In this document: positions 1-64,000 of the stretch, piece after piece | Layout: every line of letters starts with the position of its first letter | How positions within the stretch are numbered: the stretch's first letter is position 1 | Source of the DNA: a virus | Length of the DNA stretch: 64,000 nucleotides | IMG/VR virus record: IMGVR_UViG_3300037400_003528 | Span: 64,001-128,000 of that record | Strand: one strand, 5' to 3' | Notes under the pieces: model-generated | The model's database searches: none | Seen by the model: the letters and a program-made list of their open reading frames with translations, nothing else | What the model was told of the DNA's origin: nothing | Made by a program: the position numbers and the translations under genes

Positions 1-151
1 GTATGAAGTATAGCGGGTCAAATCTGGCCCTTTAATGTTACACAATAACAAAATAATTTTAGGAAAATCGGGAAGGCTGAGATGCTAATCCGAGCGGAAG
101 TTGTCTTTTAAAAGAGGCAACACGCGCAGAGCATAGGAGAAAAAACTTATT

Positions 152-1168
152 ATGGCAAACAAAAAAATAGTTCCAAAAGAACACCAAGATATTATTATTG
201 ATTTTTATGTAAATAAACAATATGGAATACAAAAAGTTATAAAAGAATTAAAAAAAATAGGTTTAAGTTATGGAGAAAGAGTAATAAAAAGGATTCTTCA
301 AGAAAATAATGTCCATATTCGTAATTTTAATGAAGCTAAAGTAGGAAGATATAAAATAGAAGTTCCTAAATAGCTTTAGCAAGAAATAATTGAATTATAT
401 TAGAGAGGATATGGATTAGAAAAAATTGTAGAAATTTTAAATACGTCTTTTTCTTTTGATAAAGTAAAATCTATTTTAATTGAAAATGGTATTCATATTA
501 GAAATTTACAAGAAGCTTCTTAGGTAAAGGTTATACCTGATTTAAGAAAATATTCTATTAATGATAATTATAATTTTCAAAGTCATAATGGAGCATGGGT
601 TTTAGGAATGTTTGCTTCAGATGGTTATTTACCAATTACTAAAGGGGCTAAGAATCGAATAATTTTAACATTACAAAGAAGAGATGAAGATTGTTTATCT
701 TTAATAAAAGAAGAATTATAGTATACAGGACCTATTAACCAATATAATTCAACTTTAGGGTATCCTAATTCTTCTCTTGCTTTTACTTCTTATAAAATTA
801 GAAAAGAATTTGAAAGTTTTGGTATTGTAAATGCTAAAACATTTAAATTAAAACATCTTCCATAGAATATAAAAGATGAATATATATTAGATTTTATTCG
901 AGGTTATTTTGATGGAGACGGAAGTGTTTATGAGAAAAGAGGATCTATAGCTTCAAGTTTTACTTGCGCTAACAAAACTTTTTTAGAAGATATAAAGAAA
1001 GTTTTATTTTAGAAGTTAAAATTAGAAGGAGGGTCTATTTCCTTAAATCACAATGTATATTCTTTAAAATATGGAAAAGAGGATACTTTAAAAATGTGTT
1101 CTTTCTTTTATGATAATAATTATTTATCTCTTCCTCGAAAAAAGAAAAAATTTAATGCTTTAAGATAA
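152..1168 (+). CDS. LAGLIDADG homing endonuclease (double-motif), 338 aa with 7 in-frame TAG read as sense
   Basis: Two LAGLIDADG motifs are readable: 'WVLGMFASDGYL' and 'ILDFIRGYFDGDGSV'. The frame is continuous from ATG 152 to TAA 1166-1168 only if TAG is translated. Confidence 0.8.
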
Positions 1169-1461
1169 TATCTCCCACGAGCCTAAATATCCCAAAAGGA
1201 TAAAAAGATATGCCGAACTTATACGAAAAAGAAGTATAAGAAGTAAAGATAAAAAACTTTACGATAACAAGAATTTGCAGATTTTAAATTTACGTCACAA
1301 GCTAATCATATTCAAAAATTACAGAAACTAAAATAGCATTATACGCAACAAGGTTTTCATTTACAACGATTATATAAACGTAGAAAAAAAGACGATAATG
1401 GAATATATCGATCTACTTTTGGTACTATAATGTAGAAGCATCCATGGGGAGGTACATCTGT

Positions 1462-1791
1462 ATGTCACAAATGGTTTTAAAAAATGGAGTTTCTATTTAG
1501 TATGAAAGTTTTTTTATAAATATCAAAAGAATTATAAATCAAACATATAAACTTTTACCTATGAGAGAATAGGGAAAAAATTGGATTAAACCGCTTGAAA
1601 CTTTAATTGAAGAACTTTGCGGAATGAAAAGATTAATACCTAATCAAGATGATCTTTTTTTTACTTTATTATGTAAAATGGAGGGATTATTTGATTTAAC
1701 TGATGACGAAAAAGATATGATTCTTTATAGACGAATTATTTTTGAGTGTTTAAGTTTGTTAAATAGTTTAAATACAAATGTTACGATATAA
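1462..1791 (+). CDS. hypothetical protein (109 aa, 1 in-frame TAG)
   Basis: RBS 'ggggagg' lies 9 nt upstream of ATG 1462. The open frame runs to TAA 1789-1791 across one TAG. The start is ambiguous, since the frame is open from 1399. Confidence 0.4.
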
Positions 1792-3076
1792 AAATTTTAA
1801 AAATAGAATTTCAGCTAGAAATGATTAGTATAATCAAGATTTTGAAAATCATAAAGGATTAAACGGTCTACAAAAAAGATTAGCAGTCCGCGGTGGTTCT
1901 GACCAATGGATTAGAATGAGAGAAGATAAACTAAGAAGTTTAAAAAGTGCTTTAGTTGCTTCTTATCAACGTGCTATTGTTCAAAAGTATGATGTTAAAA
2001 AAGATAGTTTAGCAAAAAACATTATTTCAATAATTACTCTTTTACAAGATAAAGTTTAGTTATCTGATTCTGAAATACAATTTTTAAATGGAATTGAAGA
2101 ATAGTATAACTTTATAGAAACAGATAAGGATTCACCGCAATATATAAATCAATTACAAGAAATTGTAGATTCTTTAGTTAATAGCGAACCTTTATTTAAA
2201 TGTTTAATTAATCACGATAAATTAAAAGTAGATTATTAGGATAAAATTATATCTATTCCTTTTATGTAGCCTCCTGTTGGAGAAAAAGAACCTATTGAAA
2301 CTAATTTTCATAATGGTACTGTTTTTAAATGGGTGCATGGAAATAAAGAAGAATGGACTCCAGATACTTATTGGATTGTATATATGCAATACTCAGAAGA
2401 AACTGCTTATTTTAGAGCAGAAATTAGAAAAGCAGATGAAGAAATTGAAATTATAACAATAGATGAAGAAGGTAATGAAAATACTGTTACTTATCATGGT
2501 TGGATGACAGGACCTAATGAAACAACAGCTTTATGGAATACTAAAAAAGGTGTTGTTTGGAATGATATGAATTATACTAAATTACTATATATAACAAAAG
2601 ATGAAGATACATTGGCTTTTTTTCAACGCTTTGATAGAATTATAATTAATGGAAAACCTTGGTAGGTACAAGCCTATAATGAAAGTTATAGTACAAATAA
2701 ACATGGAGATGCGGAAACTGGTATAATTAGAGTAGCATTAAAAGAAACTTATACAGGTACTTCTCAATTTGTAAAAGAAACAATATAGGATTTGGATAAA
2801 CAACAAGCAGATAAATAGGTTTATGATGTTACTCATACATAGGGGTATATTGACGGTCCTATGGTTGCCGCACCTTATGATAGATTGACCTATACAGCAA
2901 AAAATCTAGAACCCGCAGAATGGTCTATATCTGATACCACTCTTGCTAAAATAGTTTCAATATCATAGGATGGAAAAACTATTAAAATAGATATTTTAAC
3001 AGGATTTTCTAATAAAGAAGGTTTTGAAATTAGTTATGGAGATTTAAAGTTGCAAATTCCTATTGTATCTTTATGA
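1778..3076 (+). CDS. virion/tail structural protein, hypothetical (432 aa, ~9 in-frame TAG, ends TGA)
   Basis: ATG 1778 overlaps the upstream gene end. A triplet-by-triplet check found no TAA/TGA until TGA 3074-3076. The frame contains the supplied ORF 2333..2665. Confidence 0.6.
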
Positions 3077-3095: not shown

Positions 3096-3728
3096 ATGAG
3101 AAAAGATTTAATATCTTTAAAACCTATCTATTCAACGTTTTTATCATGCGATAAAGATATATAGAAAATTTTAAAAACTCTTTTTGTTTAGAGTCGGCCT
3201 CATAGTGATATATTAAAAAAACTTTTGATTATAAATTCAAAAGATTGTTTAGAGAAGAATGAAGAATATCAACGTGTTATTGACAGTTTTTCTTTAAAAG
3301 ATTTAATTGATAAAGATTATATAAGATTAAATCCTAAAATATCAAGAGGAACACATTAGGAAGTAAAAAGTTATATTATTATTTCTTTAGATAATTTTTC
3401 TCCAAATATAAGAAATTCTTAGTATCGAGATTATTTTATTAATTTTGATATAGTGTGTTATAATGATACTTGGGTATTAAATGATTATAAAATTAGACCT
3501 TTAATGATTTGTGGATATATTTAGGGGATATTAAGAAGTTTAACTTCTTCTAATTCTAAAAATAAAAAATCTTATGATGCAGATATAAAGTTAACAGGTA
3601 TTGGAAAATATTAGTTAATTGGTTGTAAACAAGTTGTTTTAAATGAAGATTTATCTATGTATACATTATCTTTTAGAGGAATGCATTTTACAGAAGATAT
3701 AGGATAGATGAAGAACAATGGAGAATGA
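3096..3728 (+). CDS. hypothetical structural protein (210 aa, 8 TAG, ends TGA)
   Basis: RBS 'aaaggaga' precedes ATG 3096. The frame is open to TGA 3726-3728 only with TAG read-through. Confidence 0.55.
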
Positions 3729-7448: not shown

Positions 7449-10400
7449 ATGGCTCAACAAGGAGGGAAAATAGATTTTTAGATAGGGTTTAAAACAGATA
7501 AAACCGCTATCGAAGAAATTAAGAAAAGTCTTCAAAGTATCCAAAATATAAAAATAACTGATTTTGGAGGAACAAAAGAAGAATTAAAAGATATAAAAGA
7601 TACAGCAGCGGAAGTAGAAAGAGCCTTAAATGAAGCATTTAATCCAAATATAAAATCAATTAATTTAAAGACTTTTGATACTTAGCTAGGAAAATCTAAA
7701 ATAACGATAAATGATATATCAGAAAAATTTTCTAAACTTGGTCCGCAGGGGCAAGTGGCTTTTAGTCAAGTTGCTCGCACCGTTTTAACAACTAATCAGG
7801 AATTAAAACAAACTAGTAGCCTTGTTAATGATTTAGGAACTACTTTTATTAACGCAATGAAATATAATATTGCGGGAAGTATTTTTAGAGGTCTTACAGA
7901 AAGTATTCAAGGTGCTTTTCAATATGTTGAAAGTTTAGAAAAATCATTAACAGATATTAGAATTGTTACAGGAGACTCTCAAGAGAAAATGTAGCAATTT
8001 GCGGATTCTGCTAATAGAGCTGCTCAGGCCATTGGACGTAGTACTATGGATTACAGCAAGGCCGCACTTACTTTCTATCAACAGGGTTTAGATGATTAGG
8101 CTGTTGCTGAAAGAACTCAAACAGTACTACAAGCACAAAATATTACTGGTGCTGGAAGTGAAATGGCTGACTATTTAACCGCAGTATGGAATGGTTATAA
8201 AGTTGCAAATGAATAGGCATAGTTATATGTTGATAAAATGGCGGCAGTTGCAGATACTAGTGCTTCGAACATGAGTTAGTTAGCTATTGCTACATCTAAA
8301 GTTGCATCAACCGCTAGTGCTATGGGAGTTAATGTTGACCAATTAAATGCATCATTAGCTACTGTTATAGCTACAACACGTCAAGCGCCATAGGCAGTAG
8401 GTACTGCTTTTAAAACTATTTTTACTCGTTTAAATGATATTAAAGCTGGAACTGATGATGCGGAAATTAGCCTTGGAAATTATTCAAGTAAAATGGCGCA
8501 ATTAGGATTTAATGTTCTTGATGCAACAGGCCATTTAAGAGACACTGGATAGGTTATAGAAGAAATTGGTTAGAGATGGGATACTCTAACCAGATAGCAA
8601 CAAGTTTACTTAGCTACGACTATGGGTGGTCAAAGACAAGTTAACCAATTAATGGCTTTATTTGAAAACTGGACTACTTATAGTGAATTATTAAATACTT
8701 CTCTTTAGGCGGAAGGTACTCTTGCTGAAAAGAATAGTCGTTATATGGAATCTCTTGGTGCTAAAATGGAGAAGTTAGGTGCAGCAGGAGAACGAGTAAA
8801 AGCTAGTTTAATAGATAGTGAAAGTTTTGGTGGAGTAATTGATATATTAACTACTGGAACTAATTTATTAAGTACTTTTATTTAGGCTATAGGCGGAGGC
8901 GGTTCCGCACTTTTAGGACTTGGTGGTATTGCCACACAAGTTTTTAGCGGAGTTATTGCAAAAGAAATTAATAATGCTATTGTTAATTTTCAAAATATGC
9001 GTTTTAATGCAGAACAAACTAAAATAGAATTACAAAAAACAGAATAGTTTGGACAAATTCAAGGATTAAATAGAGAAGCTATTAATTAGATGTTATTAGC
9101 TAAAAAATAGATGCAAGGTCTTTATTCTGTGATGTCTATATAGGAACGAAATGGTTATAATGCTATTGTTGAAAGTTTAGGTAAAGCTAAATAGCAAGTA
9201 TTGATTTAGCAAGAAAAAGTTAATAAAGCTAAAGAGTATGAAAAGGCTTTAACAGATGTCGCTAATAGTTATGGAATTGATTTTTAGAAACAAAGACTTG
9301 GCGTTATAGATTATGTTGATGCTATAGATAATATGTTGAATAAAATTAAAAAAGGATCTGGAAATTTTGCAGATTTAATAGATTCAACAGAAGAATTAAA
9401 AGTCAATTTAGGCGAATTACCAGAAAGTTTAAAAAATTTATATAATCAATTAGAAAATGCTAAACATGATAAAAGTCTTTCAGAAGATTTATTAAATCAA
9501 ATAAAAAATGATGAAACTGGTACTTTTAAATCTATTTTTGATTAGAAAGAAATTGAAAAACAATTAACTGGTGCTGAAAATATAATTAGAGATAGAATAT
9601 CTAAAATTGTTCAAGAAGTAAGAAATTTAACTGATTTAAGTTTAAATTTAGATATAAATACAGCAAATTTAGAATAGGCTACAAAAAAATTAGAAGATAT
9701 AAAGAAAAAAGTTCAAGATTTACAAAATCAAATTAATCAATCTTTAAATATACGAGGTATTGTTCAAGGTATTGGAAGTATTGGAAGAATTGCTTCAGGA
9801 CTTACTTCTTTATCTAGTGGGATAAAAAATTTATTTAATGAAAATATTTCTGGTTCAGAAAAATTTTTAAAAGTTTTAACAAGTATTGGATATGCTTTAC
9901 CTTCAATTGTTTCTGGTATTACTCAATTAAAAACATTAACTCAAGCACTTTCTGTTGTAACCGTTAATGCTACAAAGGTAGCTGAAGCAAAATTAGCAGT
10001 TGATCAAACTAAACAAATATTAGATTAGAAAACTATAATATTATAGGCAGCAAGAAAAGTTGGTCTTATTGATTTAACAGCTTAGTAGGCGGCAGTTACC
10101 GCAGCAACGGAAGCTCATACAGCAGCAGAAGAAAGATTAGCTGCTGTTATGAGTTTAAATCCATTAGGAAAATATTTAATTGCACTTGCAGCTATTGCAG
10201 GGGCTATTGCATTAGTGGTTAAAGTTGTTGATTAGGTTAATATGTCTATTAAATAGGCAGATTAGGCTATTGATACTTTTAATAAAAAAGTAGAATAGTC
10301 TAATAATAAAATAAAGAATTTTAATTCTAATATAGGTTCATTAAAAGATGCAGAAGAGGAATGGGATAAATTATCTCAACAAGCTGGAGTTTATAATTCT

Positions 10401-23325: not shown

Positions 23326-23354
23326 CGTTAAAACTACCTCCTTAATCTAATTAG

Positions 23355-47564: not shown

Positions 47565-47761
47565 GCTTCATAATCCTCATAATTTCTATTAACAGATTCT
47601 CCGCAAAAAGGACAAATAGCTGTAATGTACAACTCATTTCTCCAATTATTACGAGTGTAAGAAGAGTTGTCTGCTTCAAAAATACAATCACATTTAGAAC
47701 AAATAAAACGTTTTGTTTCGTTCATTTTTTTTAAAGAACCATCTTTAATAATTTTAATCAT
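47561..47761 (-). CDS. small Zn-ribbon protein (66 aa)
   Basis: 'CSKCDC...CPFCG'. Confidence 0.45.
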   Translation of the reverse strand: MIKIIKDGSLKKMNETKRFICSKCDCIFEADNSSYTRNNWRNELYITAICPFCGESVNRNYEDYEA

Positions 47762-51522: not shown

Positions 51523-52063
51523 TATAAGTAGCCTCCTTACCAATAAACTCCCATCGTAATGGCTCTCCTGTAATAGGATGTTTACCATTTGTTTTTAATC
51601 TTCCTTTTCCATTAGCAACTTGTCTAATGTGGTTTCGATCTCCTCCCTTGCACCATTCTGCAGCTCTACTGGCATTATCAAAAATTTGACCAGTATTTAT
51701 ACAACGTATTTTTTTACCTTTTCCATAATTAGGATGTTTTTCTCCAGATAAATTTTTAGAAATTTTTTCTTTTGTTTCTTCTGATAAGGCTCCTTGAGAA
51801 CTAGCATTTCTTATATTATAACCAAACTGTTTATTTTGAGTATTAAATAAATTTATATATTCTTGTTCTTTGAGGTTAGCTTCTTCTAAAGTTAAGTTAC
51901 TTTCTAAAATTTTAACTGAAAAGTTATCCCAACCATATTTTTGAATGGCCTAGTAAAAAGCAACACAATTTTTATACTTTTTACCTTCTTTACCTGACCT
52001 TTGGTACAAAGAAGAACAAGTTTGTCCAATATATTTTTTATGATTTATTTTATTTTCATACAT
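51512..52063 (-). CDS. free-standing GIY-YIG endonuclease (Seg/I-TevI-like), 183 aa, 1 TAG
   Basis: 'KKYIGQTCSSLYQRSGKEGKKYKNCVAFY.AIQKYGWDNFSVKILE' is a GIY-YIG core. Located between the topoisomerase subunit genes. Confidence 0.7.
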
Positions 52064-52096
52064 ATATATTTTATATATATTCATTAATTTTTCCCT

Positions 52097-53995
52097 TTAA
52101 ATAAGACATTGTGCTTCTATACTGTGTTCTTTAATAAATACTTTTCTCGGAATAATAGCAGTTCCCATTAAATCATCAAATAATTTATCTGTTTCTTCGC
52201 TATCATCAATCGTAATTTGTTTAATAATTCTATTAGCAGGATTTGTAAGAGTCTCTTCTATTTGTTCAACATCCATTTCTCCTAATCCTTTCATACGATT
52301 GACTTGATACTTTCCCGTATAAGTTTTTCTAAATGCTTCAAGGTCATCATCATTCTTTAAATATTTATAACCTTTATTTCCACCAAGAGTAATTTTATAA
52401 AGAGGTGGAACTCCAGCATAAATGATACCGTCATAAATCAATTGAGGACAAAAGTTCCAAATAAAAGTATAAAATAGATTTTTAATATGAGCACCGTCTA
52501 CGTCAGCGTCACTCATAATAATAATTTTACCATAGCGGAGTCCATCACGGTCATATGTAACCCGCATTGTTTTTGTATCAATCTTTAAACCAAACGCTTC
52601 AATCATAGTCATAATCTCAGCATTTTTTTGAATCTTATCTAAGGTAGCTTTTTGTGTATTAAGGATTTTACCACGGACAGGCATTACAGCTTGAAATTCA
52701 TTATTACGTGCCGTTTTTAAACCACCTGCCGCACTATTTCCTTCAACAATATAAATTTCACATCTTTCTCTATCTTCACTATAGCAGTCCGCAAGTTTAC
52801 TATCAAATTTTAAAGCCTTTTCTTTTTTCTTTCCTTGCTCTCTTGCTTTTTCTCTTGCCTTTTTAGCAGCTTCTCTTGCTTTTTTAGCATTAATAGCTTT
52901 GTCTGCAATAAGTTTAATTTCTTTTTCATTATTAGCTAACCAATATTGAAGATTTTCAGTTAAAGCTACATTAAAAGGTTTCATTTCAATTTTAGTAATA
53001 CGAGTTTTAACTTGTGCATCATATGATACATTTGGAGCAGTAATATTAAAAACAATATACATACCTTCTTGTATATCATCACCAGTTAAATTTTCATCTG
53101 TGGATTTAAGCCATTTCTTTTCTTTAAAAAATTTGTTAAATTCACGAGTAATAATAGATTTTACTTGTGTAATATGTTGTCCAGTTTCAGTTAAGCCAGT
53201 ATTAACATATGGAACAATAGTAGATGAATAATTAGAAGTATAGGTAAGAACCATATCCATTTTATTCTTACCTTCTGCAAAATTCATATCAAATCTATTA
53301 TTAATAAGTTCTTTATTTCCAACTGCGGCATCAACTAAATCATTTAAACCTTTATTAGATATATAGTCATATATCTTACCATTCTCATTTAAATGAATTG
53401 TTAATCCGGGGCATAGACAAGAAATAGTTTTAAATAAAGAATGAATTTTATTACTTTCTACTTCTGTATGAGTAAAAAATTCCTCTGAAGGTTGCCATTC
53501 TACTAATGTACCAGATACGCCGCCTGCGCCAGTACTTCTATTTTGAAAAACACCTTCTTTAAAATATATTTCTTCCCATTCTCCGTTTCTTATAGTTTTA
53601 ACTCTTAGCCAATGAGATAAAAATGTAGTAATTTTAGAACCAATACCAAAAGAACCTAATGAAGTTCCTTCATAAGTTCCATCTTCTCTATATTTACCAG
53701 AAGTATTAAGAACACTAAAAGCAGCTTCAAGAATTGTTTTATCGTCTTCTCTAAAATGATTTGGAAGAAAACCTTGTCCATAATCTCTTACAGCAAAAGT
53801 ATCTCCAATTATCGTTACATCAATTTGATTACCATGTCCAAGTCTAAATTCATCAATTGCATTAGAAACAATTTCTATGAGCAACTGAGTTGAATACGTA
53901 GTATCACCTGCATATACACCTGGTTTTAATCTGGTAAATTGTAATGGATCTAATGATTCTATTGATTGTTCTGTATATAAGGTTTTATCTATCAT
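52097..53995 (-). CDS. type II DNA topoisomerase ATPase/TOPRIM subunit (GyrB/T4 gp39+gp60-like), 632 aa
   Basis: Supplied ORF with a GHKL ATPase N terminus and TOPRIM 'EGNSAAGG'. Confidence 0.85.
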   Translation of the reverse strand: MIDKTLYTEQSIESLDPLQFTRLKPGVYAGDTTYSTQLLIEIVSNAIDEFRLGHGNQIDVTIIGDTFAVRDYGQGFLPNHFREDDKTILEAAFSVLNTSGKYREDGTYEGTSLGSFGIGSKITTFLSHWLRVKTIRNGEWEEIYFKEGVFQNRSTGAGGVSGTLVEWQPSEEFFTHTEVESNKIHSLFKTISCLCPGLTIHLNENGKIYDYISNKGLNDLVDAAVGNKELINNRFDMNFAEGKNKMDMVLTYTSNYSSTIVPYVNTGLTETGQHITQVKSIITREFNKFFKEKKWLKSTDENLTGDDIQEGMYIVFNITAPNVSYDAQVKTRITKIEMKPFNVALTENLQYWLANNEKEIKLIADKAINAKKAREAAKKAREKAREQGKKKEKALKFDSKLADCYSEDRERCEIYIVEGNSAAGGLKTARNNEFQAVMPVRGKILNTQKATLDKIQKNAEIMTMIEAFGLKIDTKTMRVTYDRDGLRYGKIIIMSDADVDGAHIKNLFYTFIWNFCPQLIYDGIIYAGVPPLYKITLGGNKGYKYLKNDDDLEAFRKTYTGKYQVNRMKGLGEMDVEQIEETLTNPANRIIKQITIDDSEETDKLFDDLMGTAIIPRKVFIKEHSIEAQCLI

Positions 53996-54122: not shown

Positions 54123-54220
54123 AAAGAAAATAAATGACAAAAGTGCGTCTACATTTATATACATATATATCAACAGACAAAAATAAGTGTGTAGTAATAT
54201 TACTACACACTTATTTTTTA
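54123..54220 (+). ncRNA. candidate ~100-nt small RNA (promoter to strong terminator), no convincing RBS/ORF
   Basis: Bounded by the 54089-54116 promoter and an 18-bp perfect hairpin plus T6. Confidence 0.3.
54181..54220. terminator. strong bidirectional terminator (18-bp perfect stem aaataagtgtgtagtaat/attactacacacttattt)
   Basis: Palindrome flanked by an A-run and a T-run. It lies downstream of the endolysin on the minus strand. Confidence 0.8.
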
Positions 54221-54322
54221 TATTATTTCAACATATCTGAAATTAACAAATCCATAAATTTTATTATTAATTTTCACATAATACCAAGTAGTACCATTGC
54301 TTGCTTGAATACTATCACAAAT

Positions 54323-55687
54323 CTAAATAATTTTGTCTTTATAGATATAAGGAATACTTTTTAAAGGATTAAATTCAACCCCTGCCCAGCTTCTTACATA
54401 TAGTGCATTTGCTGTAACTTTAGCTTTAGCATAAGTATCTCGGGCGGGAGACACTTTACCTGTTCTTGTAAATTTAGTTTTAGATGTTGCAATTAATTTT
54501 TTATCAGTATTAACGGGTTTTTCGGGCATCACCTTCTCCGAAGATTGAGGTGCTGCCGCCGCATTCGCATATTTAGGTATAGCATATCCACGAATATTAC
54601 CATTAGCAACTTGTAATGTACGTCGCGCCACCACTCCGCCATTACCTGTATTTCCTTCTATTGTTATGATAATATTTCCCTCAACCTTTTCAATAATACC
54701 AATATGATCTGCAAAACCGTCATTTGGTTGAGTGCCGTCATCCCAATTATAGGTTATAATCCAGCCTGGTTGAGGAGTAACTGAACCATTCTATTCCCAA
54801 ATACCAGCTTTTTTAAACAATTGAATATGTCTCTAAACACCACATTCAGTTCCACCAATTAAATCGACGGCGTTATTCTTAATAAAAGCCGCAGAAAGAG
54901 TAGTATCACAATAGTCATCAGTATATTTAACTTTATAACCAACGGCAAGAGGTTTATGATTATTATAAATATCAATAATATCTCTATGTGTTTGTTTAGC
55001 CATACTTTTTCCAATCCATTCTGCCATTGTGTTAATTATATCTTGCGCAGAAGTACCTTTAGTCTAAACAGATTTTTCCTCTTTCTTTTCCTATTGCTCA
55101 TAGTAGAAATTCATATCTACATTACCTGAAATACCATTTACTTTACCTTTACTTGTATATTGATGATAAACGCAATCATAATGAGGTGTAGTATTATAAT
55201 CCGCTAACCATATAATATATTTTTTTATGGTTGCCGCATCATACCAATTTTTATAATAGTCTTGATTTAAATAAAAACCTACTTTATATCCTTTGCTTTT
55301 AATATAATCACAAAAAACATTGGTAAAATTAATGCAATCAGTTTTTGTTAACTTAACTTTTTTTTCTCTGGCATTATTAACCGTATCATATTCAAAATCG
55401 TAAAAAACAATTATGTCTTTTCCTAACCCTGCTTTCTAAATATTTTTTATACAACTTTTTGCTTCTTCTATTGCATCATTTTTATTTAAAGGATAAGCAA
55501 AATGATAAACACCATGAATATTTATATTAGCTTCTTTAAATTTTTTTACGTTGTTTAAAAAATATTTATCAATTTGTTTTCTATATCCCTAACGAATAAT
55601 AACAAAGTTTATACCATCTTTTTTTACTTTTTCGGCATTTATATTATTACCTTGATGCTAAGAAATATCAATTCCTTTTAAAGCCAT
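54323..55687 (-). CDS. endolysin: GH25 muramidase + CHAP-like peptidase + SH3b-like cell-wall binding (454 aa, several TAG)
   Basis: N terminus 'MALKGIDIS.HQGNNINAEKVKKDGINFVIIR.GYRKQ...GVYHFAYP' is GH25-like. The middle 'GWIITYNWDDGTQPNDGFADHIGIIEKVEGNIIITIEGN' is CHAP-like. The C terminus is SH3-like. RBS 'gaaaggagac' precedes the start. Confidence 0.75.
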
Positions 55688-55704: not shown

Positions 55705-55740
55705 TAAAAAAGCGGGAGATCACTCTCCCGCTTCTTTTTG
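55705..55740. terminator. GC-rich hairpin (agcgggaga/tctcccgct) overlapping the holin stop codon
   Basis: 9-bp stem with loop 'tcac', flanked by A/T runs. It sits between the holin and endolysin genes. Confidence 0.65.
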
Positions 55741-55956
55741 TTCTATCATATTTTCTGAAAGTTTAACTTCTGGAAGTCCTGCTAAACTAGTCATAATTGA
55801 AAGGATACCTGCTGTACAAGCTACCGATGCTACATAAGCCCAATCTACTTCTCTAAAAGCTGCTCCCACCGTAATCATAGAGGCAAAAGTTTGAGCAAAA
55901 GTTTTTAATGCTCTAATACCAGCCGCCTTAATCCATATTTTAGATTTTTCACTCAT
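55720..55956 (-). CDS. holin (78 aa, two predicted TM segments)
   Basis: The hydrophobic segments 'MITVGAAF' and 'VASVACTAGILSIMTSLAGL' are separated by a short linker. The gene is immediately upstream of the endolysin. Confidence 0.6.
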   Translation of the reverse strand: MSEKSKIWIKAAGIRALKTFAQTFASMITVGAAFREVDWAYVASVACTAGILSIMTSLAGLPEVKLSENMIEQKEAGE

Positions 55957-56002: not shown

Positions 56003-56470
56003 TTACTTTTTATTATTTTGACCTTTCTTTTCTTTAATTTGAGTTAAAAGAAGTTTTCTATGTTCTAAATCTTTATCAATATTTTGGATTTGTTCTTTTA
56101 AAAATTTAATATTATTGGTATGATTTCTAATCATAAAATAGAATCTATTTTCAAGTAATCTTGTTATAGCAAAACAAGTATAATTATCTCCATTATAATT
56201 TTTTACAAAAGGTAAAATATCTTTCTTAACTTCTCTTTCTATTGTTTGGAGTATTAGTCTTTCTCGTTTTAATTCTTCTTTATAAAATTTTTTTGTTGCT
56301 TTCATTTCAGCAATAGATAATCCAGAAAGTTTACTTTGAACTTCTTTATCTTCAGGATGGACTTTTGCTACTCCCTTAAATATACCTCTTTTAGTTTTTA
56401 TTGTTACAATAGATACTCCTGTATTTGGGTTAAAATTAGAATTAAAAAGTTTTGTTTTTAATTGTCTCAT
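56003..56470 (-). CDS. hypothetical protein (155 aa), possibly a regulator
   Basis: Supplied ORF; basic and Lys-rich. Confidence 0.35.
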   Translation of the reverse strand: MRQLKTKLFNSNFNPNTGVSIVTIKTKRGIFKGVAKVHPEDKEVQSKLSGLSIAEMKATKKFYKEELKRERLILQTIEREVKKDILPFVKNYNGDNYTCFAITRLLENRFYFMIRNHTNNIKFLKEQIQNIDKDLEHRKLLLTQIKEKKGQNNKK

Positions 56471-56576
56471 TATTTTTTTTGCTCCTTATTTTTATAATAT
56501 AATTTTTAATAATATATAAACTCATTTCAACAAAAAGAGTTCCAAAAATTCCTACTAAAACTGGATTTACAATCAT
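56442..56576 (-). CDS. small hydrophobic peptide (44 aa)
   Basis: 'MIVNPVLVGIFGTLFVEMSLYIIKNYII...'. ATGA-coupled to the phosphoesterase stop. Confidence 0.3.
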   Translation of the reverse strand: MIVNPVLVGIFGTLFVEMSLYIIKNYIIKIRSKKNNETIKNKTF

Positions 56577-57115
56577 TCTTTTTTCTCCCTATATTTATTA
56601 ATATCTTCAATTATTTGTTCTATTGATACAGGATAACAATTATGAGCATCCATTGCTACATTATAAATACTATATTGTCCAAATTCAAATTTATTAGAAC
56701 TATGAGTATGTCCAGATAGATTCCAAAAGAAACGTTTTTCTTCAAAATTACCTACAAGAGTAGGATAATGAGAAAGATAAAACATTTTCTTTTTATTATA
56801 TTTATAGATTGAAGCAAAACCAAGATATGTCATACCATATTCTGTTTGATATTTATTAAGTTTGTTATTTGTATCATGATTACCCCAAATAACATTTTTT
56901 TCTCCATTTAATACTTTATAGACACGATTCCATTCTTTTTCATTTCCGCTCATACATAAATCGCCAAGAATATAAACAGTATCTTTTGGAGTAATAATAC
57001 TATTCCATCTTTTTAAGATTTCTGTATCATGTTCTTCTATTGAAGAAAAACCGCGCGGCTGCCAGAGAAAATTTTTATCGTGTCCAATATGGAGGTCTGC
57101 TGTAAAATAAATCAT
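56573..57115 (-). CDS. calcineurin-like metallophosphoesterase (180 aa), putative 3'-phosphatase of the RNA-repair cassette
   Basis: 'DLHIGHD', 'GDLCMSGNE' and 'GNHD' motifs. Confidence 0.7.
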   Translation of the reverse strand: MIYFTADLHIGHDKNFLWQPRGFSSIEEHDTEILKRWNSIITPKDTVYILGDLCMSGNEKEWNRVYKVLNGEKNVIWGNHDTNNKLNKYQTEYGMTYLGFASIYKYNKKKMFYLSHYPTLVGNFEEKRFFWNLSGHTHSSNKFEFGQYSIYNVAMDAHNCYPVSIEQIIEDINKYREKKE

Positions 57116-57118
57116 TTT

Positions 57119-57607
57119 TTAATTCCTTTTTAGTGGAACCAATTGATCGTTAACATAAGTAAAAATCATATCAAATGGTTCATTATAAGTAGGTGGTTTT
57201 AAATGTGTATACATATTATATATCTCGTTGGGCGGGACATAAGTTTTAGTTCCTTTTCTAAGGTCATTTCTTTCTAAGCATACTTCAATCGGAGTATTAA
57301 TATATATTGCAATAATATTAGTTTTATGACGATTAATATGGAGTTGATTAAGAAGTTTATAACGACTTTTTGGATTTAAATGGGTAGCATCCGCAATAAC
57401 ATCTTCCCCATTATTAATATGAAGATTTATTTCTTCAAGAAAAGTTTTATACACTTCTTTTTCTTTTGCGAAATAATTATCGTGTTCATTTAATAATGAA
57501 AATCTAATGACATCTCTTGATATATGAATTTTTTTAGGTTGAGCTTTTGCAAAAGTAGTTTTTCCAGACCCAGGAACTCCTATCATAATAAATAAATTAT
57601 TTTTCAT
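57119..57607 (-). CDS. P-loop polynucleotide 5'-kinase (Pnk kinase-domain-like), 162 aa
   Basis: Walker A 'GVPGSGKTTFA', a size typical of the T4 Pnk kinase domain, and adjacency to the phosphoesterase and RNA ligase. Confidence 0.6.
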   Translation of the reverse strand: MKNNLFIMIGVPGSGKTTFAKAQPKKIHISRDVIRFSLLNEHDNYFAKEKEVYKTFLEEINLHINNGEDVIADATHLNPKSRYKLLNQLHINRHKTNIIAIYINTPIEVCLERNDLRKGTKTYVPPNEIYNMYTHLKPPTYNEPFDMIFTYVNDQLVPLKRN

Positions 57608-57633
57608 TTCTTCTCCTTTATTATAACATAAAA

Positions 57634-57672
57634 TTTTATAAAAGGCAAAAAAGTTATAATAACCTTTTTGCC
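57634..57672 (-). terminator. hairpin + T-rich terminator between the RNA ligase and kinase genes
   Basis: Sequence 'ggcaaaaa...tttttgcc'. Confidence 0.5.
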
Positions 57673-57679
57673 TTTTATT

Positions 57680-58915
57680 TTAATTATGATATGTCATCAA
57701 AAATTCATTAGAAACAGCTTTAAAAGATTGAGTTCCATCTTCTGACCGAAATACAATACCTTCACGCATATCTTCGTCAATTTGAGATTTATCAGTAGCA
57801 TAATCAAGCAATTCTTCAACAGTATCAGGGAGAATGAATTTACTATTTACAATAGGGACACAAGGAATATTGTAATAATCTTCAAGCAGTTCTCTCATTT
57901 TAAGAGTATTAAATCTTCCTTTGTCAGAAGTAATAAGATTAAATGCCATAAAATCATGACCAGTTAGATGATAATCTCTTTTTTGTACTCCTGCTCCATA
58001 AGTTTCACCCTGGATAGTAATCCATTCTGCGGCCGGAAATAACGATAGCATTTCAATAAGAGCATGTTCAATATGATACTTTTCCGCCATTTCTGTATAA
58101 ATATTAGTTTCATAAAAACATGTTTTATCAGGCTTATCAAAGCAGACATTACGAGAACAAACATAAAATTCATTTTTATGAGGCCACTTTCCACGTTTGA
58201 TAGTAAAAGTAGTTGAAGAACCATCAATCTTTTCTGTTGCAATCCAAGGGTTCTTATCTTTAAGAATCCAAGGCATATTTTGGATTCTTTCTTCATCAGT
58301 TTTCTTTACCCAAGTGGGCCAGCCTGTTTTGTCTCGCTTTCTACCAAAGAAAATAAAAAGAAGTTTCTTACCCCAGTCGCGCTTCATAAGCCAGCGGAAA
58401 GGCTGCTTTGAAAACAATTTTCCATTACGCTGTGCCATTTTTTTATATTTATCTACAGAAGAGGTCTTACGTTCATTATCTTCTGCTACATAATAAGTTA
58501 CTCCAAGCTGTTTAGTAAGAAAACGAGAATCATTTCCAGCATTGTGTTCAACCCCATTAGAGTCATGAATAGAATAACCATAATTATGATTTTCAATAGT
58601 CCAATTAAGATTAGCAGCAGATATAAGTAAACCTTGACTTAATGATTTACACATCTTTTGAGTCTTTATACGATATTTCTTTTTAACAAGAAAAGTCATA
58701 TCAGTAAAAGGTTCTACTTCAGGAAGTTTTGAATCAATCTCAAAGTAAATAGCGGGGTCACCCACTTTAAATTCACCCTTACCGACAACGATAGTCCATC
58801 CGCCAACGTGCGCCAATTCAACTCTATCGTATCCTTCAATTGGAGTAATATCATCAATAGTTACGACATACGCAAGTTCTCTTTCGTTAGTTTTTGGATT
58901 AAGCAAAGTAGTCAT
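57680..58915 (-). CDS. RNA ligase (nucleotidyltransferase motif I KxDG), 411 aa
   Basis: 'WIATEKIDGSSTTFT' gives motif I. The remainder is covalent nucleotidyltransferase-like. Confidence 0.7.
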   Translation of the reverse strand: MTTLLNPKTNERELAYVVTIDDITPIEGYDRVELAHVGGWTIVVGKGEFKVGDPAIYFEIDSKLPEVEPFTDMTFLVKKKYRIKTQKMCKSLSQGLLISAANLNWTIENHNYGYSIHDSNGVEHNAGNDSRFLTKQLGVTYYVAEDNERKTSSVDKYKKMAQRNGKLFSKQPFRWLMKRDWGKKLLFIFFGRKRDKTGWPTWVKKTDEERIQNMPWILKDKNPWIATEKIDGSSTTFTIKRGKWPHKNEFYVCSRNVCFDKPDKTCFYETNIYTEMAEKYHIEHALIEMLSLFPAAEWITIQGETYGAGVQKRDYHLTGHDFMAFNLITSDKGRFNTLKMRELLEDYYNIPCVPIVNSKFILPDTVEELLDYATDKSQIDEDMREGIVFRSEDGTQSFKAVSNEFLMTYHN

Positions 58916-59069
58916 CTCCTTTCATATTTTCTTCAAAAATAATTCTTTTTATAAAAAATAGTTTTTCTTTATCATTTAAAAAATCTGCTTTTAGAATTTT
59001 TTTAATTTTATTTAATTGATATTCCATTTTGATATAAGTAGGGTCTTCATCAGGGTCAAACATTCCCAT
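58899..59069 (-). CDS. small hypothetical protein (~56 aa)
   Basis: Internal ATG with RBS 'ggaag'. Confidence 0.3.
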   Translation of the reverse strand: MGMFDPDEDPTYIKMEYQLNKIKKILKADFLNDKEKLFFIKRIIFEENMKGDDYFA

Positions 59070-59245
59070 TATTCTACTTCCTCCCAAGTGAAATCAATAC
59101 GATTAAAAATTATATCTACGGCTGCATCAAAAACAAGACGAGGAAGTTCTGCTTCTGATATATCTCCGTTAATTGTAACTATATCTACATCATCAGGAAC
59201 TCCCGCCCAAGGATAACCAATTCTAATTTTTATCTTTTTTTCCAT
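59069..59245 (-). CDS. small hypothetical protein (58 aa)
   Basis: TAATG coupling with the upstream gene. Confidence 0.35.
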   Translation of the reverse strand: MEKKIKIRIGYPWAGVPDDVDIVTINGDISEAELPRLVFDAAVDIIFNRIDFTWEEVE

Positions 59246-59508
59246 TAATCTTCTTCCTTTCCAAGGAAAATTATAAACTCTTCGAAATGTAAATTTAATA
59301 TTTCATCTTCAACATAAAAAATATCTTTTCCATATGTAGTATGATACCAATCTATAAAGATAGATAAAAGTTGACCCATTCGTAATTCAGGACATTTCAT
59401 ATGTAAAAATTTAAAATCGTCCCATAAACTCATAATTTCTATCATTCTTTTACGACAGTTTTCATCATTTTTATTATTAATAGCGTTAAGTCTTAAATTA
59501 TTTTTCAT
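59245..59508 (-). CDS. hypothetical protein (87 aa)
   Basis: Supplied ORF; first gene of the minus-strand module. Confidence 0.45.
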   Translation of the reverse strand: MKNNLRLNAINNKNDENCRKRMIEIMSLWDDFKFLHMKCPELRMGQLLSIFIDWYHTTYGKDIFYVEDEILNLHFEEFIIFLGKEED

Positions 59509-59547
59509 TTTTATTTTCTTCTTTCTTTTTTCTTTTTCATTATATAA

Positions 59548-59576
59548 ATTTTATCAAAATTTTTTAAAAAGGTCAA
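59548..59576 (-). promoter_or_regulatory. promoter TTGACC-17-TAAAAT (minus strand) with an A/T-tract spacer
   Basis: Minus-strand reading is 'ttgacctttttaaaaaattttgataaaat'. Confidence 0.5.
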
Positions 59577-59602
59577 ATATAAGAAAATGATTTTGTGTTC
59601 TT

Positions 59603-59632
59603 TTGAAAAAGAGTAAAAGAAATAAATATAAA
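59603..59632 (+). promoter_or_regulatory. candidate promoter TTGAAA-18-TATAAA (plus strand)
   Basis: A weaker match upstream of the palindrome and RBS. Confidence 0.35.
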
Positions 59633-59635
59633 GGA

Positions 59636-59655
59636 GTAGGAAATATATTTCCTAC
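59636..59655. promoter_or_regulatory. perfect 20-bp palindrome gtaggaaata|tatttcctac between the promoter and RBS (candidate operator)
   Basis: Exact dyad symmetry 16 nt upstream of ATG 59672. Confidence 0.5.
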
Positions 59656-59671
59656 AAAAAGGAGAGAAAAA

Positions 59672-62482
59672 ATGCCAGGAATAAGCAATAATTTATATCC
59701 ACCAATTTTTAAAAAATCTTATGTTCCTGCTTTTGTAGGTTCATGTGAAATATATTTTTCTATTTCTGCTTATAATAGTTAGAGTGATATAAATACACAA
59801 TGTATACAAGTTAGTGTTCAAAATCAAAAAACAAATCAATCTGTTTTAAATAAAAATAAATACCCAAGCGGAGTTATGATAACAACATTAAAAATTAATA
59901 ATGATATTAAAACAGAAAATAAATATTCTATTGTTATTTTAGGTAATGATATAGAAGGTGGATTTCAATATAATCAATATTATAAAGTACAAATACGTTT
60001 TACTGGATCTAATGTTCGTACACCGGTAATGACATCAAATTCTTATAAAATAGATCAATGGATAAATAATAATTTATCTAATTTTTCATAGTGGTCAACA
60101 GTAGTATTAATAAAAGCTATAAGTAAACCAGAAATAAAATTAAAGTATTTTGAATCAGATTCTATTGTTACTGTAACAACAAGTAATTTAACTGTATTAG
60201 GGACAGTAACTAATCATATAAAAGATTATGAACTTTTAAAAAGTTATAAGATTTTAATTTATAATACTTAGGATGTTTTATTAGAAGAAAGTGAAAATAT
60301 ATTATTTGATTCTTCTAATAAAATTGAATATAATTGTAGATACAATTTTGAATCGTAGCATTATTATAAATTGTGTGTACAAATATTAACTAAAAATTTA
60401 TATTTTATGTAGCAATTTTTTGATTTTTATGTAAGTTATTCTTTTTATGGAAATTTTGGCGGACAAATAGAAGCTACTATTAGTGAAAATATTGGATGTG
60501 CTATTATAACTATAAAAAATAATGAATTTTCTTAGTTAGGTACAAATATTGTAATTAGACGAACTTCTAATAAAGATAATTTTAAATATTGGGAAGATGT
60601 TTTTACAACATCAGTTAAACCTAATGTAATGTTAAATTTAGTATGGAGAGATTATACTATAGAAAGCGGAATATGGTATAAATATAGTGTAGTAACACGT
60701 AATAAGAATAATATTAGATCGAATCCAGTTTAGATTAAATATCCTATAATGGGAATTTTTGAAGATATATTTTTAACGACAAAAGATCAACAATTAAAAG
60801 TTCGTTTTGATCCTCAAATAAATAATTTTTCAACAGTGGTTTCAGAATCTTTAACTGAAACATTAGGCTCAAAATATCCTTTTATTAGAAGAAATGGTGC
60901 AGTAAATTATAGAACTTTTTCTTTAAGTGGAACAATAAGTTATTTTATGGACATAGGTCAAAATTTAATGCACGCTTCTTTAGAAGAAAATTATGGAGAC
61001 TATGCTTATTTATATAATGATTATAATCAAAAAAATAATATCAATATGTTTAAAGATATTACCCAGTAGAAAGTCTTTAGAGAAAAAGTATTAACTTTTT
61101 TATATGCTAATGATATAAAATTGTATAAATCTGCGACATAGGGTAATTTATTAGTTAAATTAATGAATATTAATTTAACCCCTAATAATAGTTTAGGTAG
61201 ACAAATTTATACTTTTAATTGTACTGTCTATGAAATTGATAATTTTAATTATTAGAATTGTATAAAATATGGTATTCAAGAATAGGGTGAATATGTAGAG
61301 CAAACCTCCATTACTGTAACTAAACATGGACAAATTTATATTCCACAAAGACAAATCTATGAAATGAAAACAATAGATAATGAGGAAAACAAGGTTTATC
61401 AAATAGACGAAAATCTTTTTTTTGGTACTCAAGATTTATTAACAACTAAAATTGCGGAAAAATATAAAACATTAGCGAGATATAATACTTCTATTAGTGT
61501 TCAAAATTTAACTTATTTAAAAATTTAGTTAACGAATGATCCATATCCTATAGGAATAGAAAGTGGGATTCCGCGAAGATTAGAAATAAGTACAAATAAT
61601 ACTTATTTAGGACATATCGTAATAATTAATGGATAGTATATTATTATTGGAAAAGATGGGATATATGAGTTATCAGGAGATGATATTAGTATTACTAGTT
61701 TATCTTTTGTTTACCCTAATGAACAGGGAATTATAGATTATGAGGTTTCATTAACAGAATCTATAAAGACAGAACAAGATTTTCTAAGAATTACTTCTCT
61801 TTTCAAAACAGGTCAATTATGGGGTACTTTTGCTCTGTAGAATAATTTAATTTATACATAGATAGCTAATAAATATAAATTTGAAGAAGCTAATTTAAAA
61901 TTTAGTCAAGAATTACAACGAATAAAGGGTTTATGTGTACAAGCGGAACCTGGTATGACTTTTTATATAAAATAGAATCAAGATAGTGATTATGAAAAAC
62001 ATGTATTAAATGAAACTGGCTTATTAGAATTTTATAATGATGATACTGATATAAAAGGATTATATTTTATTGGACCTAAATTAACAGAAGTCTCAGCAGA
62101 AGAGCTAAGACAAAGAGGATTAGGACCAAATGAATTTTATGATACAAATTAGGTTATTACAGTAACAGAAATAAATGCACCTCATAATAATTATGTTTAT
62201 CGTATTTCTCCAATGGGTAGAATAGATTCAGATTCTTTAGTAATAGGAGAAGAAGAAATAGATAATTTACCAGAAAATCCTTCTTTTTTATTATGGGATG
62301 TTATGAATACTGTTGGTGAAGATTTAAATTATAGTACGTTAGGACTTTTTTATAGTTCTTTTGGTAAATATATTTATTATCAAGGAACTTGGTATCCTTT
62401 TACAAATAATAATGAAGTAATTATTCCTAATGTAGAAGCTATTGTAGATTATTATTGTGAAATTTTAAGAAAGGAGTATTAA
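59672..62482 (+). CDS. large virion structural protein, hypothetical (936 aa, ~20 TAG)
   Basis: RBS 'aaaaaggagag' precedes the start. All lines 59672-62482 were read in triplets with only TAG interruptions. The frame links ORFs 59876.., 60749.. and 62213.. Confidence 0.65.
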
Positions 62483-64000
62483 TGGTAGGTGAAAAGGAAT
62501 ATTTAAATGATGCTACTTTTTTAAAATACGTTGCTGGATTACATATAAAAAATTATTTAGTTAAAATAACAGTATTAGATTGGGAATAGAATTAGATAAA
62601 AGATATTCATGGTAAAGTTTTAACAGCTTCTATTAATATAGATGGAAATAGTATTATTAGAAGAAGTGCTACTTTAAGTGTATATATTGATGACACTAAT
62701 AATGATATAACTAGTGCTTAGAATATTTTATCTATAAATAAAAAAATTAATTTATAGATTGGCTTTTTAAATAATACTGAATATTATTCAGATTATTCTA
62801 TATTATGGTTTCCATTAGGAATTTATGTTATATTAGGTAATTCTATTTCTTATTCAGAAAGTGGATTAACAGCTTCTCTTCAATTAAAAGATAAGATGTG
62901 TTTATTAAATGGTGAATGCGGCGGGACTTTACCTGCCGCTACTGTTTTTGATAATTATATAACAGTAGATGAAAATGGTGATGAAATTGTTGAACGTCCT
63001 ACTATTTATATGATTATTCAAGAATTAGTAAATCATTTTGGGGGATAGCAATTAGGTAAAATAATTATTTCTGATTTAGATACAAGAGTAAAACAAGTAG
63101 TAAAATGGACAGGAACTTCTCCTTTATTTCTTTATAAAAATGGTAATCAATTTCAATATTCTATGTAGCAAAATAATGGAAATGTATATAAAAATTGGCC
63201 TAAAGAAATGTTTTAGTACGGAGAGGATGTAGGTTTTATTTATACTGATTTTACTTTTCCTGGAGATTTAATAGGTGATGCAGGAAATACTGTTACTGAT
63301 ATATTAGATCAAATTACAGAAGTATTAGGAAATTATGAATATTTTTATGATATAAATGGAAATTTTGTTTTTCAATAGATTAAAAATTATTTAAATAATG
63401 CTCAATCAAAATATATTTTAGATATTTTAAATAATAAGAAAAATAATAATAAAAATACTTTAGTTCCTGATTATATAAAAAATTTAGAAGGAAATAATGA
63501 TTTAAATGCTTATTTAATAGATATTAATAATGGAACTTCTGCCTTTGAGTTTAATGATAGTTTTTTAGTATCTAGTTATTCTAATACTCCTCAATATTCT
63601 GCTATTAAAAATGATTTTGTAGTATGGGGAGTAAGAACTACAACTTAGGGCACTGAAATACCTATACGATATCATTTAGCAATAGATGAAAAACCCTTAC
63701 CTGGAAATACTTATTAGATTTTTTAGTATAAAGACCCATTAGACGGATCTGATAGATGGTATTATCCAATAGCAATAGATTCAATAGAAAGTTTACCAGA
63801 AAAGGGAACAGAAGATGTTTGTTATAAAATAGAAAATAATGTATATGTATGGGATGTAGATGAACAAAAATGGATTAACACAGAAAGTTCACCAACAATA
63901 ATAACAACAGTAGATTGGCGGACATAGTTATTTTGTCAAGGGCTCGTTGCAAATACACTGGGTACAGATTCTAATTATTATTTTGCAGAATTACATAATG
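62482..64000 (+). CDS. structural protein, hypothetical (partial, >=506 aa, many TAG); continues beyond the window
   Basis: TAATG coupling with the upstream gene. The frame is open to the window end with only TAG interruptions. Confidence 0.6.

Follow-up and report, generated by a model that had tools for sequence, protein, structure and literature searches.

TAG is a sense codon in the window

We analyzed a 64,000-nucleotide stretch of phage DNA (positions 64,001 to 128,000 of IMG/VR record IMGVR_UViG_3300037400_003528; hereafter the window) with regard to the meaning of the amber codon TAG within its genes. The window has a G+C content of 28.1% and carries genes for virion structure, nucleotide metabolism, DNA replication and lysis. 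Gene models were defined as open reading frames (ORFs) of at least 80 amino acids in which only TAA and TGA act as stops, which gave 48 models with 19,723 codons. We observed 282 in-frame TAGs spread over 32 of these models, and the stop of each of the 48 was TAA or TGA, with TAA in most. Under the standard code, ORFs of at least 100 amino acids covered 54% of the window; this rose to 94% with TAG read as sense, against only 59% with TGA read as sense. TAA is not read as glutamate (Glu) here: most gene models end at it, and taking TAA and TGA as stops yields a compact ORF map at this 94% coverage.

Full-length profile and PDB matches continued unbroken through TAG positions. The Guanylate_kin profile was matched over 3-180 of its 182 positions, spanning 11 TAGs; GH25 (1-180/180) and NRDD (13-560/562) were likewise matched across in-frame TAGs, and PhageMin_Tail (4-201/201) was matched inside a tape measure of 2,921 codons. 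Matches across TAGs were also obtained for DHH with RecJ_OB, AAA_24, LAGLIDADG, RuvC, dUTPase, a tail fiber and virion structural proteins. An initial annotation of the window, made from its sequence alone, had named dUTPase, NrdD, a guanylate-kinase-like enzyme, a DHH phosphoesterase, GH25, LAGLIDADG proteins and a tape measure, all of which were matched; NrdH, also named there, could not be confirmed.

The same annotation had proposed a genome-wide reassignment of TAG with TAA and TGA kept as stops. Sense TAG with these two stops is borne out, including the TGA stops it quoted at 3074-3076, 3726-3728 and 34982-34984 and the tandem TAG-TAG at 23266-23271 in the RuvC gene. The term genome-wide is too strong, as 16 of the 48 genes (5,280 codons) are free of TAG, and the 40 or more TAG-containing genes claimed come to 32 gene models. 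Its three long test stretches indeed lack any in-frame TAA or TGA, with lower TAG counts than reported: 92 and not ~150 at 7449-16214, 19 and not ~30 at 16294-20802, and 29 and not ~40 at 59672-64000.

If the TAGs were true stops, the interrupted frames would be pseudogenes, assembly or sequencing artefacts, or genes expressed by low-level readthrough. Nothing beyond the expectation of a standard code speaks for this, and we consider its probability negligible. The tape-measure frame holds 92 TAGs yet no TAA or TGA in 2,921 codons, coverage rises from 54% to 94% for TAG alone, and full-length domain matches cross the TAGs. Furthermore, TAG positions are conserved in independent assemblies. TAG stands opposite TAG at 72 window positions in orthologs of at least 75% identity, which excludes sequencing error and pseudogenes, and 9.8 kb of this phage, 100% identical, recur in the independent Logan assembly SRR12668996. 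Together, these data strongly support the conclusion that TAG is a sense codon in the window, with TAA and TGA retained as stops.

The residue at TAG positions behaves as glutamate

To identify the residue, we collected the amino acids of standard-code relatives at alignment columns that correspond to window TAGs. As the phage family contains members with different codes (see below), the standard-code relatives provide a clean test of the residue at these sites. Among 591 residues opposite window TAGs, 215 were E (36%), followed by D (73), N (58), K (45) and Q (17; 3%). In a larger set of 188 TAG positions in 24 ORFs with a standard-code column, the majority residue was E at 72 positions, D at 26, K at 12, N at 12 and Q at 8. 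For comparison, columns of true GAA/GAG codons in the same ORFs had an E majority in 47% of cases, and columns of true CAA/CAG codons had Q in 42% and E in 9%. The profile of TAG columns nearly equals that of GAA/GAG, and is unlike that of CAA/CAG. With positions treated as independent, the likelihood of Glu exceeded that of Asp by 75 nats and that of glutamine (Gln) by 104 nats.

Conserved columns gave the same residue. In columns at least 90% conserved among at least eight standard-code relatives, TAG faced E in 8 of 8 cases and Q in none, and in invariant columns it faced E in 5 of 5. Individual TAG codons with strong support are the following (E among standard-code relatives).

60089-60091, + strand: E in 20/20
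61139-61141, + strand: E in 24/24
62587-62589, + strand: E in 23/23
63376-63378, + strand: E in 23/24
41870-41872, - strand, AAA_24 ATPase gene: E in 10/10
27797-27799, - strand, guanylate-kinase-like gene: E in 12/12
35646-35648, - strand, DHH/RecJ-like gene: E in 13/17

PDB alignments with TAG masked as X placed mostly E or D opposite the X positions of dUTPase and guanylate kinase. The codons found opposite TAG in orthologs of at least 75% identity were, besides the 72 TAGs, GAA (39), GAT (10), CAA (6) and GAG (6). TAG-free genes contain 7.9% Glu and 3.1% Gln; in TAG-rich genes, GAA and GAG make up 6.0% of codons, or 8.4% with TAG added, and Gln makes up 3.6%, or 6.0% were TAG read as Gln. 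The predicted protein composition is compatible with Glu only. A depletion of GAG in TAG-rich genes was also considered as a sign of Glu and dropped, as all NAG codons are depleted there. A large protein search with a concatenated, X-masked query (dUTPase, guanylate-kinase-like and RuvC proteins) returned dUTPase fusion proteins only.

The initial annotation had read TAG as Gln (NCBI table 15), the assignment of crAss-like, Lak and Phassvirus phages, and the alignment of homologs that it proposed as a check came out in favor of Glu. Its supporting case, a coiled coil at 44360-44960 read with Q, cannot separate E from Q. A Gln reading can draw on several facts: Gln is the sole phage TAG assignment in the literature searched (for PMC9523058, in the portions consulted), public translations of the clade have Q at these sites, some relatives in the extended family do score Gln, and 8 of the 188 columns are Gln-majority. 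Against these stand the 3% of Q versus 36% of E opposite TAGs, the conserved columns, the 104 nats, a partner codon that is GAA and not CAA, and a Gln content that would double to 6.0%. Moreover, the same method yields Q in other lineages. We therefore regard Gln as very unlikely in the window.

A further alternative is that TAG is decoded ambiguously, with Glu mixed with Asp, Gln or Lys, or that it specifies another acidic or polar residue or pyrrolysine. At TAG columns, D, K and N indeed follow as the next commonest majority residues, the subclade of the window yielded no cognate tRNA, and ARAGORN labels CUA tRNAs 'Pyl', a label taken from the anticodon alone. However, D, K and N are spread in the same way at true Glu codons, and the strongly conserved columns are all Glu. 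For pyrrolysine, Lys-like alignment would be expected and TAG columns align with Glu; no pyl or other aminoacyl-tRNA synthetase (aaRS) genes were found among the window proteins or in the explored flanks of relatives. We give this group of alternatives a slim chance.

Some observations weigh against glutamate. About 60% of TAG columns are without a Glu majority (D 14%, K 6%, N 6%), a spread similar to that of true Glu codons. A PDB alignment of the GH25 domain, with X opposite E/K/N, L/S/T and K/K/N, did not discriminate between residues, and the support for Glu is comparative. On the alignments described above, the residue inserted at TAG nevertheless behaves as Glu.

TAG use differs between genes

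The genes and features of the window are listed below with their TAG content.

152-22798, + strand: virion-gene block g01-g11 (LAGLIDADG-type endonuclease, virion structural proteins, tape measure, tail fibers); 168 in-frame TAGs
7449-16214, + strand: tape-measure-like gene, 2,921 codons; 92 TAGs, no in-frame TAA or TGA; PhageMin_Tail at residues 188-394
22843-28192, - strand: TAG-containing genes of DNA and nucleotide metabolism, namely RuvC (4 TAGs), dUTPase (6), NrdG-like (2), NrdD (4), guanylate-kinase-like (11, or 61% of its Glu-type codons) and four small ORFs
28185-32138, - strand: DNA polymerase III (PolIII) alpha, 1,317 codons; 108 Glu codons, no TAG
33392-34842, - strand: helicase and a small ORF, both without TAG
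35265-37079, - strand: DHH/RecJ-like phosphoesterase; 13 in-frame TAGs, several opposite Glu in standard-code relatives
37164-38315, - strand: primase, without TAG
44018-44962, - strand: coiled coil and GIY-YIG protein; 17 in-frame TAGs
45588-47564, - strand: NAD-dependent DNA ligase; 0 TAGs among 54 Glu codons (P ~9e-6)
52097-53995, - strand: GyrB; 0 TAGs among 49 Glu codons (P ~3e-5)
54218-55687, - strand: endolysin with GH25 and CHAP domains; 8 in-frame TAGs
55720-55956: r1t-type holin adjoining the endolysin, too short for the 48 models; no TAG
56003-59508, - strand: TAG-free block of metallophosphatase, AAA_33 kinase, RNA ligase and small ORFs
59509-59671, no strand: divergent intergenic region of 163 bp directly upstream of g47; no tRNA
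59672-63999, + strand: baseplate/tail-like genes g47 and g48; 29 in-frame TAGs; g48 is cut at the window end

TAG is commoner than GAG overall (282 versus 125). It makes up 27% of Glu-type codons in + strand virion genes, a figure that covers all + strand genes of the window (the block at 152-22798 plus 59672-63999), and reaches 50-61% in a few small genes, namely a virion protein, dUTPase and the guanylate-kinase-like gene. The 16 genes in which it is absent include PolIII alpha, ligase, GyrB, primase, helicase, RNA ligase, kinase and phosphatase. The probability of such an absence ranges from 8e-11 to 5e-3 across PolIII, helicase, primase, ligase and GyrB; the value for PolIII (~8e-11) was computed at the TAG rate of TAG-using neighbor genes. 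PolIII alpha is readable under the standard code of a host. Our data show that TAG supplies about one quarter of Glu codons in virion genes, lysis genes and a subset of nucleotide-metabolism genes, and that it is kept out of core replication genes. There are exceptions to the late-gene enrichment: the holin lacks TAG, and dUTPase, the guanylate-kinase-like gene and RecJ are rich in it. Genes rich in TAG and genes free of it are intermingled on the minus strand, and the early/late split is not clean.

The gene for GyrA (47758-51287, - strand) appears to be split. Its N-terminal 101 amino acids (50982-51287) close at a stop, the remainder restarts near 'GDGPAAARYTE' within the ORF 47758-49887, and the two parts are separated by a LAGLIDADG endonuclease gene (50081-50893). 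This looks like an intron or intein-like insertion; an Rfam search found no group I intron. The second GyrA ORF was counted with two TAGs, both in its upstream, probably non-coding part. The window holds at least five homing-endonuclease-like genes (152-1168, 32413-33384, 44018-44962, 50081-50893 and 51512-52084), of which two are LAGLIDADG, two GIY-YIG and one unclassified. Each contains in-frame TAG, so these genes are adapted to the code of the phage. Finally, the metallophosphatase, the AAA_33/KTI12-type kinase and the RNA ligase (PF09414) form a TAG-free cassette (56573-58915, - strand) that resembles an RNA- or tRNA-repair set of kinase-phosphatase and ligase, and that could shield the tRNA pool needed by a recoded phage.

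One phage family contains four genetic codes

A megablast search against cultured phages gave nothing useful, with DNA similarity to them limited to an 88-bp patch. The best cultured matches of PolIII alpha were in SPbeta-like Bacillus phages and ~140-kb Enterococcus phages (38-39% identity over 97-99% of the protein). In IMG/VR, we recovered a family of 80 loci via PolIII alpha (59-92% identity, with one at 42%) and 57 loci via a tail/baseplate protein. Contigs of these related phages reach 130-165 kb, and the sample names of some are ones that we take to be cattle-rumen assemblies.

We typed the code of 138 related sequences by ORF coverage and obtained 62 TAG-recoded, 50 standard, 10 TGA-recoded and 16 unclear sequences. 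When the residue pipeline was applied to each TAG-recoded relative, these fell into two groups. The Glu group includes L001 and L002, the closest to the window, together with L005/L110, L006, L016, L081, L082, L113 and L116; the Gln group includes L099 (Q 40 versus E 12), L101 (27 versus 11), L096, L114, L129 and L135. TGA-recoded relatives scored Trp in the same pipeline. As it returned Gln and Trp for other relatives, the method is not blind to these residues. We conclude that four codes occur in the family: standard, TAG=Glu, TAG=Gln and TGA=Trp. Glu-type and Gln-type lineages are similarly far from the window, with a g48 identity of ~46-47% for both. In three TGA-recoded loci (L014, L021 and L024), TGA columns were Cys-majority at 8-9 of 20-28 positions and Trp-majority at 8-13; other TGA loci were plainly Trp.

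The GH114 gene of a relative from the subclade of the window (L305, 19527-20279) contains 8 TAGs and was compared with 90 homologs of less than 70% identity. Six of the 8 TAGs lie at sites with E in 89/90, 78/90, 78/90, 70/90, 50/90 and 42/90 of these distant homologs. Public protein entries of the clade (P0033-P0062) have Q at these TAG sites, evidently from translation with code 15. On this comparison, code-15 translations of these phages in public collections appear systematically wrong.

Two features of relatives lie outside the question of the code. In the close relatives L042, L043, L045, L048 and L054 the PolIII alpha match extends over 5.1-5.2 kb and not 3.9 kb, which suggests an intein or homing-endonuclease insertion of ~1.2 kb that is absent from the window gene. 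In L312-L313 and L320-L322, a Lactamase_B protein that also matches the Anti-Pycsar Apyc1 family adjoins GH114 and is a possible anti-defense gene.

Relatives encode a candidate suppressor tRNA

Within the Glu group, one relative (L160) carries a tRNA array with a tRNA of anticodon CUA, tRNA(CUA), directly upstream of its g47 homolog, and another (L110) carries such an array ~6-10 kb upstream of its g48 homolog. Pattern scans of IMG/VR found the tRNA(CUA) body CGCCCGA...TCGGGTGA in only 7 contigs; the tRNA is also given as CGCCCGA...UCGGGUGA. The five of these contigs that could be code-typed are all TAG=Glu relatives. The best cloverleaf of this tRNA has C1-G72, G2·U71, U8, A73 and a long D-loop, which is like the loop of phage tRNA-Glu(UUC) and unlike that of tRNA-Gln. 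Variants in L151 and L157 have a GUCU...GGAC D-stem and match tRNA-Glu(UUC) genes best; we take this stem to represent the U11-A24 and U13·G22 identity elements of glutamyl-tRNA synthetase (GluRS). Sister phages of the window encode a dedicated CUA tRNA with Glu-like features.

Arrays of the window's own subclade were reached via the GH114 gene in L312, L313, L320 and L322, and have the order Ile, Gly, Gly, Lys, Lys, Thr, Glu(CUC), Asn/Asp, Leu(UAG), Glu(UUC). Among ~390 phage tRNAs, the C1-G72, G2·U71, A73 acceptor end is found only in the tRNA(CUA) family and in the subclade tRNA-Glu(CUC). The latter has Asp, Asn, Leu(UAG) and Glu(UUC) as neighbors, as does the CUA tRNA in L159. The shared acceptor end and array position support, and do not prove, descent of the suppressor from tRNA-Glu(CUC) through a change of C36 to A.

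Several results count against a suppressor tRNA encoded by the phage itself. In the window, ARAGORN found no tRNA and Rfam found none even at E up to 5, and the initial annotation had seen no suppressor tRNA gene; the spot equivalent to the array in L160 is the 163-bp intergenic region at 59509-59671, which is without tRNA. With Rfam, neither gathering scores nor a cutoff of E up to 5 revealed a group I intron or any other RNA in the window; five related loci totaling 103.5 kb (four from the contig of the closest relative plus the Logan contig) likewise gave no tRNA, intron or other RNA. In the closest 142-kb contig, of which ARAGORN covered ~95 kb, only a conserved tRNA-Lys(UUU) was seen and no tRNA(CUA). 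A CUA tRNA was not seen in the visible parts of the subclade arrays, which run past the retrieved DNA. No aaRS or release-factor gene was found in the window, in explored flanks or near the tRNA arrays. Finally, body similarity to ~300 phage tRNAs gave no clear isotype for the main tRNA(CUA) type; the method is too noisy, as the Gln-type suppressor of Phassvirus was itself not grouped with Gln, and the isotype argument rests on specific shared features only.

It could be that TAG means Glu in a subclade without its own tRNA(CUA), decoded by a suppressor from a co-infecting phage or the host, or by an edited or modified tRNA-Glu. The absence of the family from the closest 142-kb contig (pattern search; ARAGORN over ~95 kb) fits this, as do the subclade arrays, where Glu(CUC) occupies about the place that CUA takes in sister clades, among Asp, Asn, Leu(UAG) and Glu(UUC). 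However, the DNA covered leaves out ~29 kb of that contig as well as the distal array portions, no known editing turns C36 into A, and 282 sense TAGs require efficient decoding. We consider a phage-encoded tRNA the better reading, and the lack of one unlikely.

The tRNA genes of relatives showed further features. Some TAG=Glu relatives (L110, 2377-2451, and L151) also carry a tRNA whose UUA anticodon would read both TAA and TAG and whose D-arm closely resembles that of a Firmicute tRNA-Glu; TAA is still the main stop codon. Across 52 IMG/VR contigs (L138-L189) there were 39 different CUA-anticodon tRNA sequences, in most of which the anticodon stem-loop GCGGTCTCTAAAACCGC is identical and the bodies are unrelated. 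Its carriers include type-II-like tRNAs, insertion-bearing tRNAs and the Phassvirus Gln-type suppressor, which suggests that an optimal amber-suppressor anticodon arm arose convergently or was exchanged. A tRNA-like gene in L312 (16568-16732), detected by Rfam and missed by ARAGORN, has the unusual anticodon loop CAUAGCG and an insertion of ~95 nt after the anticodon arm. The conserved tRNA-Lys(UUU) is solitary and lies amid small early-type genes, far from the main array (L302, 15892-15965; L303, L305, L307 and L308). A protein of ~500 amino acids with DUF2828 and DUF7788 is encoded near the tRNA arrays of relatives (L110, 5817-7325; L147, 2037-3521; L160, 5551-7071), which are also accompanied by a sigma-70 factor and PD-(D/E)XK endonucleases.

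A model for TAG decoding and its significance

From these data, we propose with high confidence that the window is part of a ~140-kb genome of a rumen/gut phage family in which TAG encodes Glu and TAA and TGA terminate every gene. A phage-encoded, Glu-charged tRNA with anticodon CUA would decode TAG from a gene outside the window, probably in a tRNA array of the subclade type ~25-30 kb past the right window end, as estimated from synteny. This tRNA probably arose from the phage's own tRNA-Glu(CUC) through the single anticodon change C36 to A. From general knowledge of tRNA identity, it would be charged by the host GluRS; the non-discriminating GluRS of many Firmicutes tolerate variation at position 36. 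On the same grounds, amidation of Glu to Gln by GatCAB may be avoided through the lack of a U1-A72 pair and a Glu-type D-loop.

Under this model, the TAG-free replication genes could be expressed at once under the standard code of the host, and TAG-rich genes would give full-length protein only once the suppressor tRNA had built up. As has been suggested for other recoded phages, late and lytic functions may in this way be timed and kept safely locked. The guanylate-kinase-like gene with its 11 TAGs abuts and overlaps the end of the TAG-free PolIII gene on the same strand, which weakens the timing part of the model.

We further think it probable that this is a new code for a virus or prokaryotic system, with UAG read as Glu and UAA and UGA as stops by means of a tRNA-Glu(CUC) changed to CUA, in a ~140-kb rumen/gut family that independently also holds UAG=Gln, UGA=Trp and standard-code lineages and in which pipelines that apply code 15 have written thousands of Glu residues as Gln. 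Stop recoding in phages is known, yet tools and papers equate amber recoding with TAG->Gln; a clade with TAG=Glu would make phage codes more varied than tables 4 and 15. In the window, gene calls with code 15 would misread ~1.4% of all codons, and up to 6% of those in some genes, with invariant acidic residues among the miscalled sites. A natural system of Glu-inserting amber suppression would be of interest for tRNA identity and genetic-code engineering; building such a suppressor is difficult, since the anticodon is itself read by GluRS. With four codes in one family, how and why codes switch can be compared directly across sister lineages, and, if the assignments are true, the family is a natural system of repeated code switching.

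Comparison with known systems

UAG is read as Glu by suppressors derived from tRNA-Glu in NCBI tables 30 (peritrich ciliates) and 31 (Blastocrithidia). To our knowledge, these eukaryotic nuclear codes, in which TAA is also Glu, are the only other cases of TAG->Glu. The meaning of UAG is common to both and the window, but here TAA is the main stop and the genome is that of a bacteriophage; the likeness is convergence and not membership.

In the searched papers of Borges et al. (preprint 10.1101/2021.08.26.457843), Peters et al. (PMC9523058), Babkin et al. (PMC10607447) and Al-Shayeb et al. (PMC7162821), TAG recoding in phages is given only as Gln or as an unresolved 'X'. We found no report of TAG->Glu in a phage in the literature searched, although its coverage was incomplete and an earlier description is possible. 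The code-15 phages (crAss-like, Lak, the 'gemstone' clades of Borges et al. and Phassvirus phAss-1) share with the window a TAG bias to structural and lysis genes, variable TAG use in genes of DNA metabolism, and TAA and TGA as stops. They likewise have a CUA tRNA in tRNA arrays, here seen in relatives, and mixed codes among related phages. The residue differs, being Gln there and Glu here. Moreover, the Gln-type suppressor of Phassvirus starts with UGGGG, whereas the tRNA(CUA) family described here does not, and has a Glu-type D-arm.

The late-gene lock model of Borges et al. finds a counterpart in the window, where TAG is concentrated in genes for structure and lysis and kept out of those for replication. 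Its suppressor tRNA was seen here in sister clades only, and no release-factor or aaRS gene was found in the window or explored flanks. Phages with TGA->Trp (table 4), such as the Agate clade, are also comparable, since the same extended family has Trp-scoring TGA members. Agate-type phages are similar in genome size and in their affinities to phages infecting Firmicutes, and differ from the window in both codon and amino acid; their 'code change' cassette of TrpRS/RF1 type was not seen in the window or explored flanks. The SPbeta-like Bacillus phages and the Enterococcus phages EF1 and VRE9, which gave the best cultured PolIII alpha matches (YorL-type), are similar in genome size and only distantly related. 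Overall, stop recoding in phages is a known phenomenon, and the assignment to Glu and the presence of four codes in one family appear to be new.

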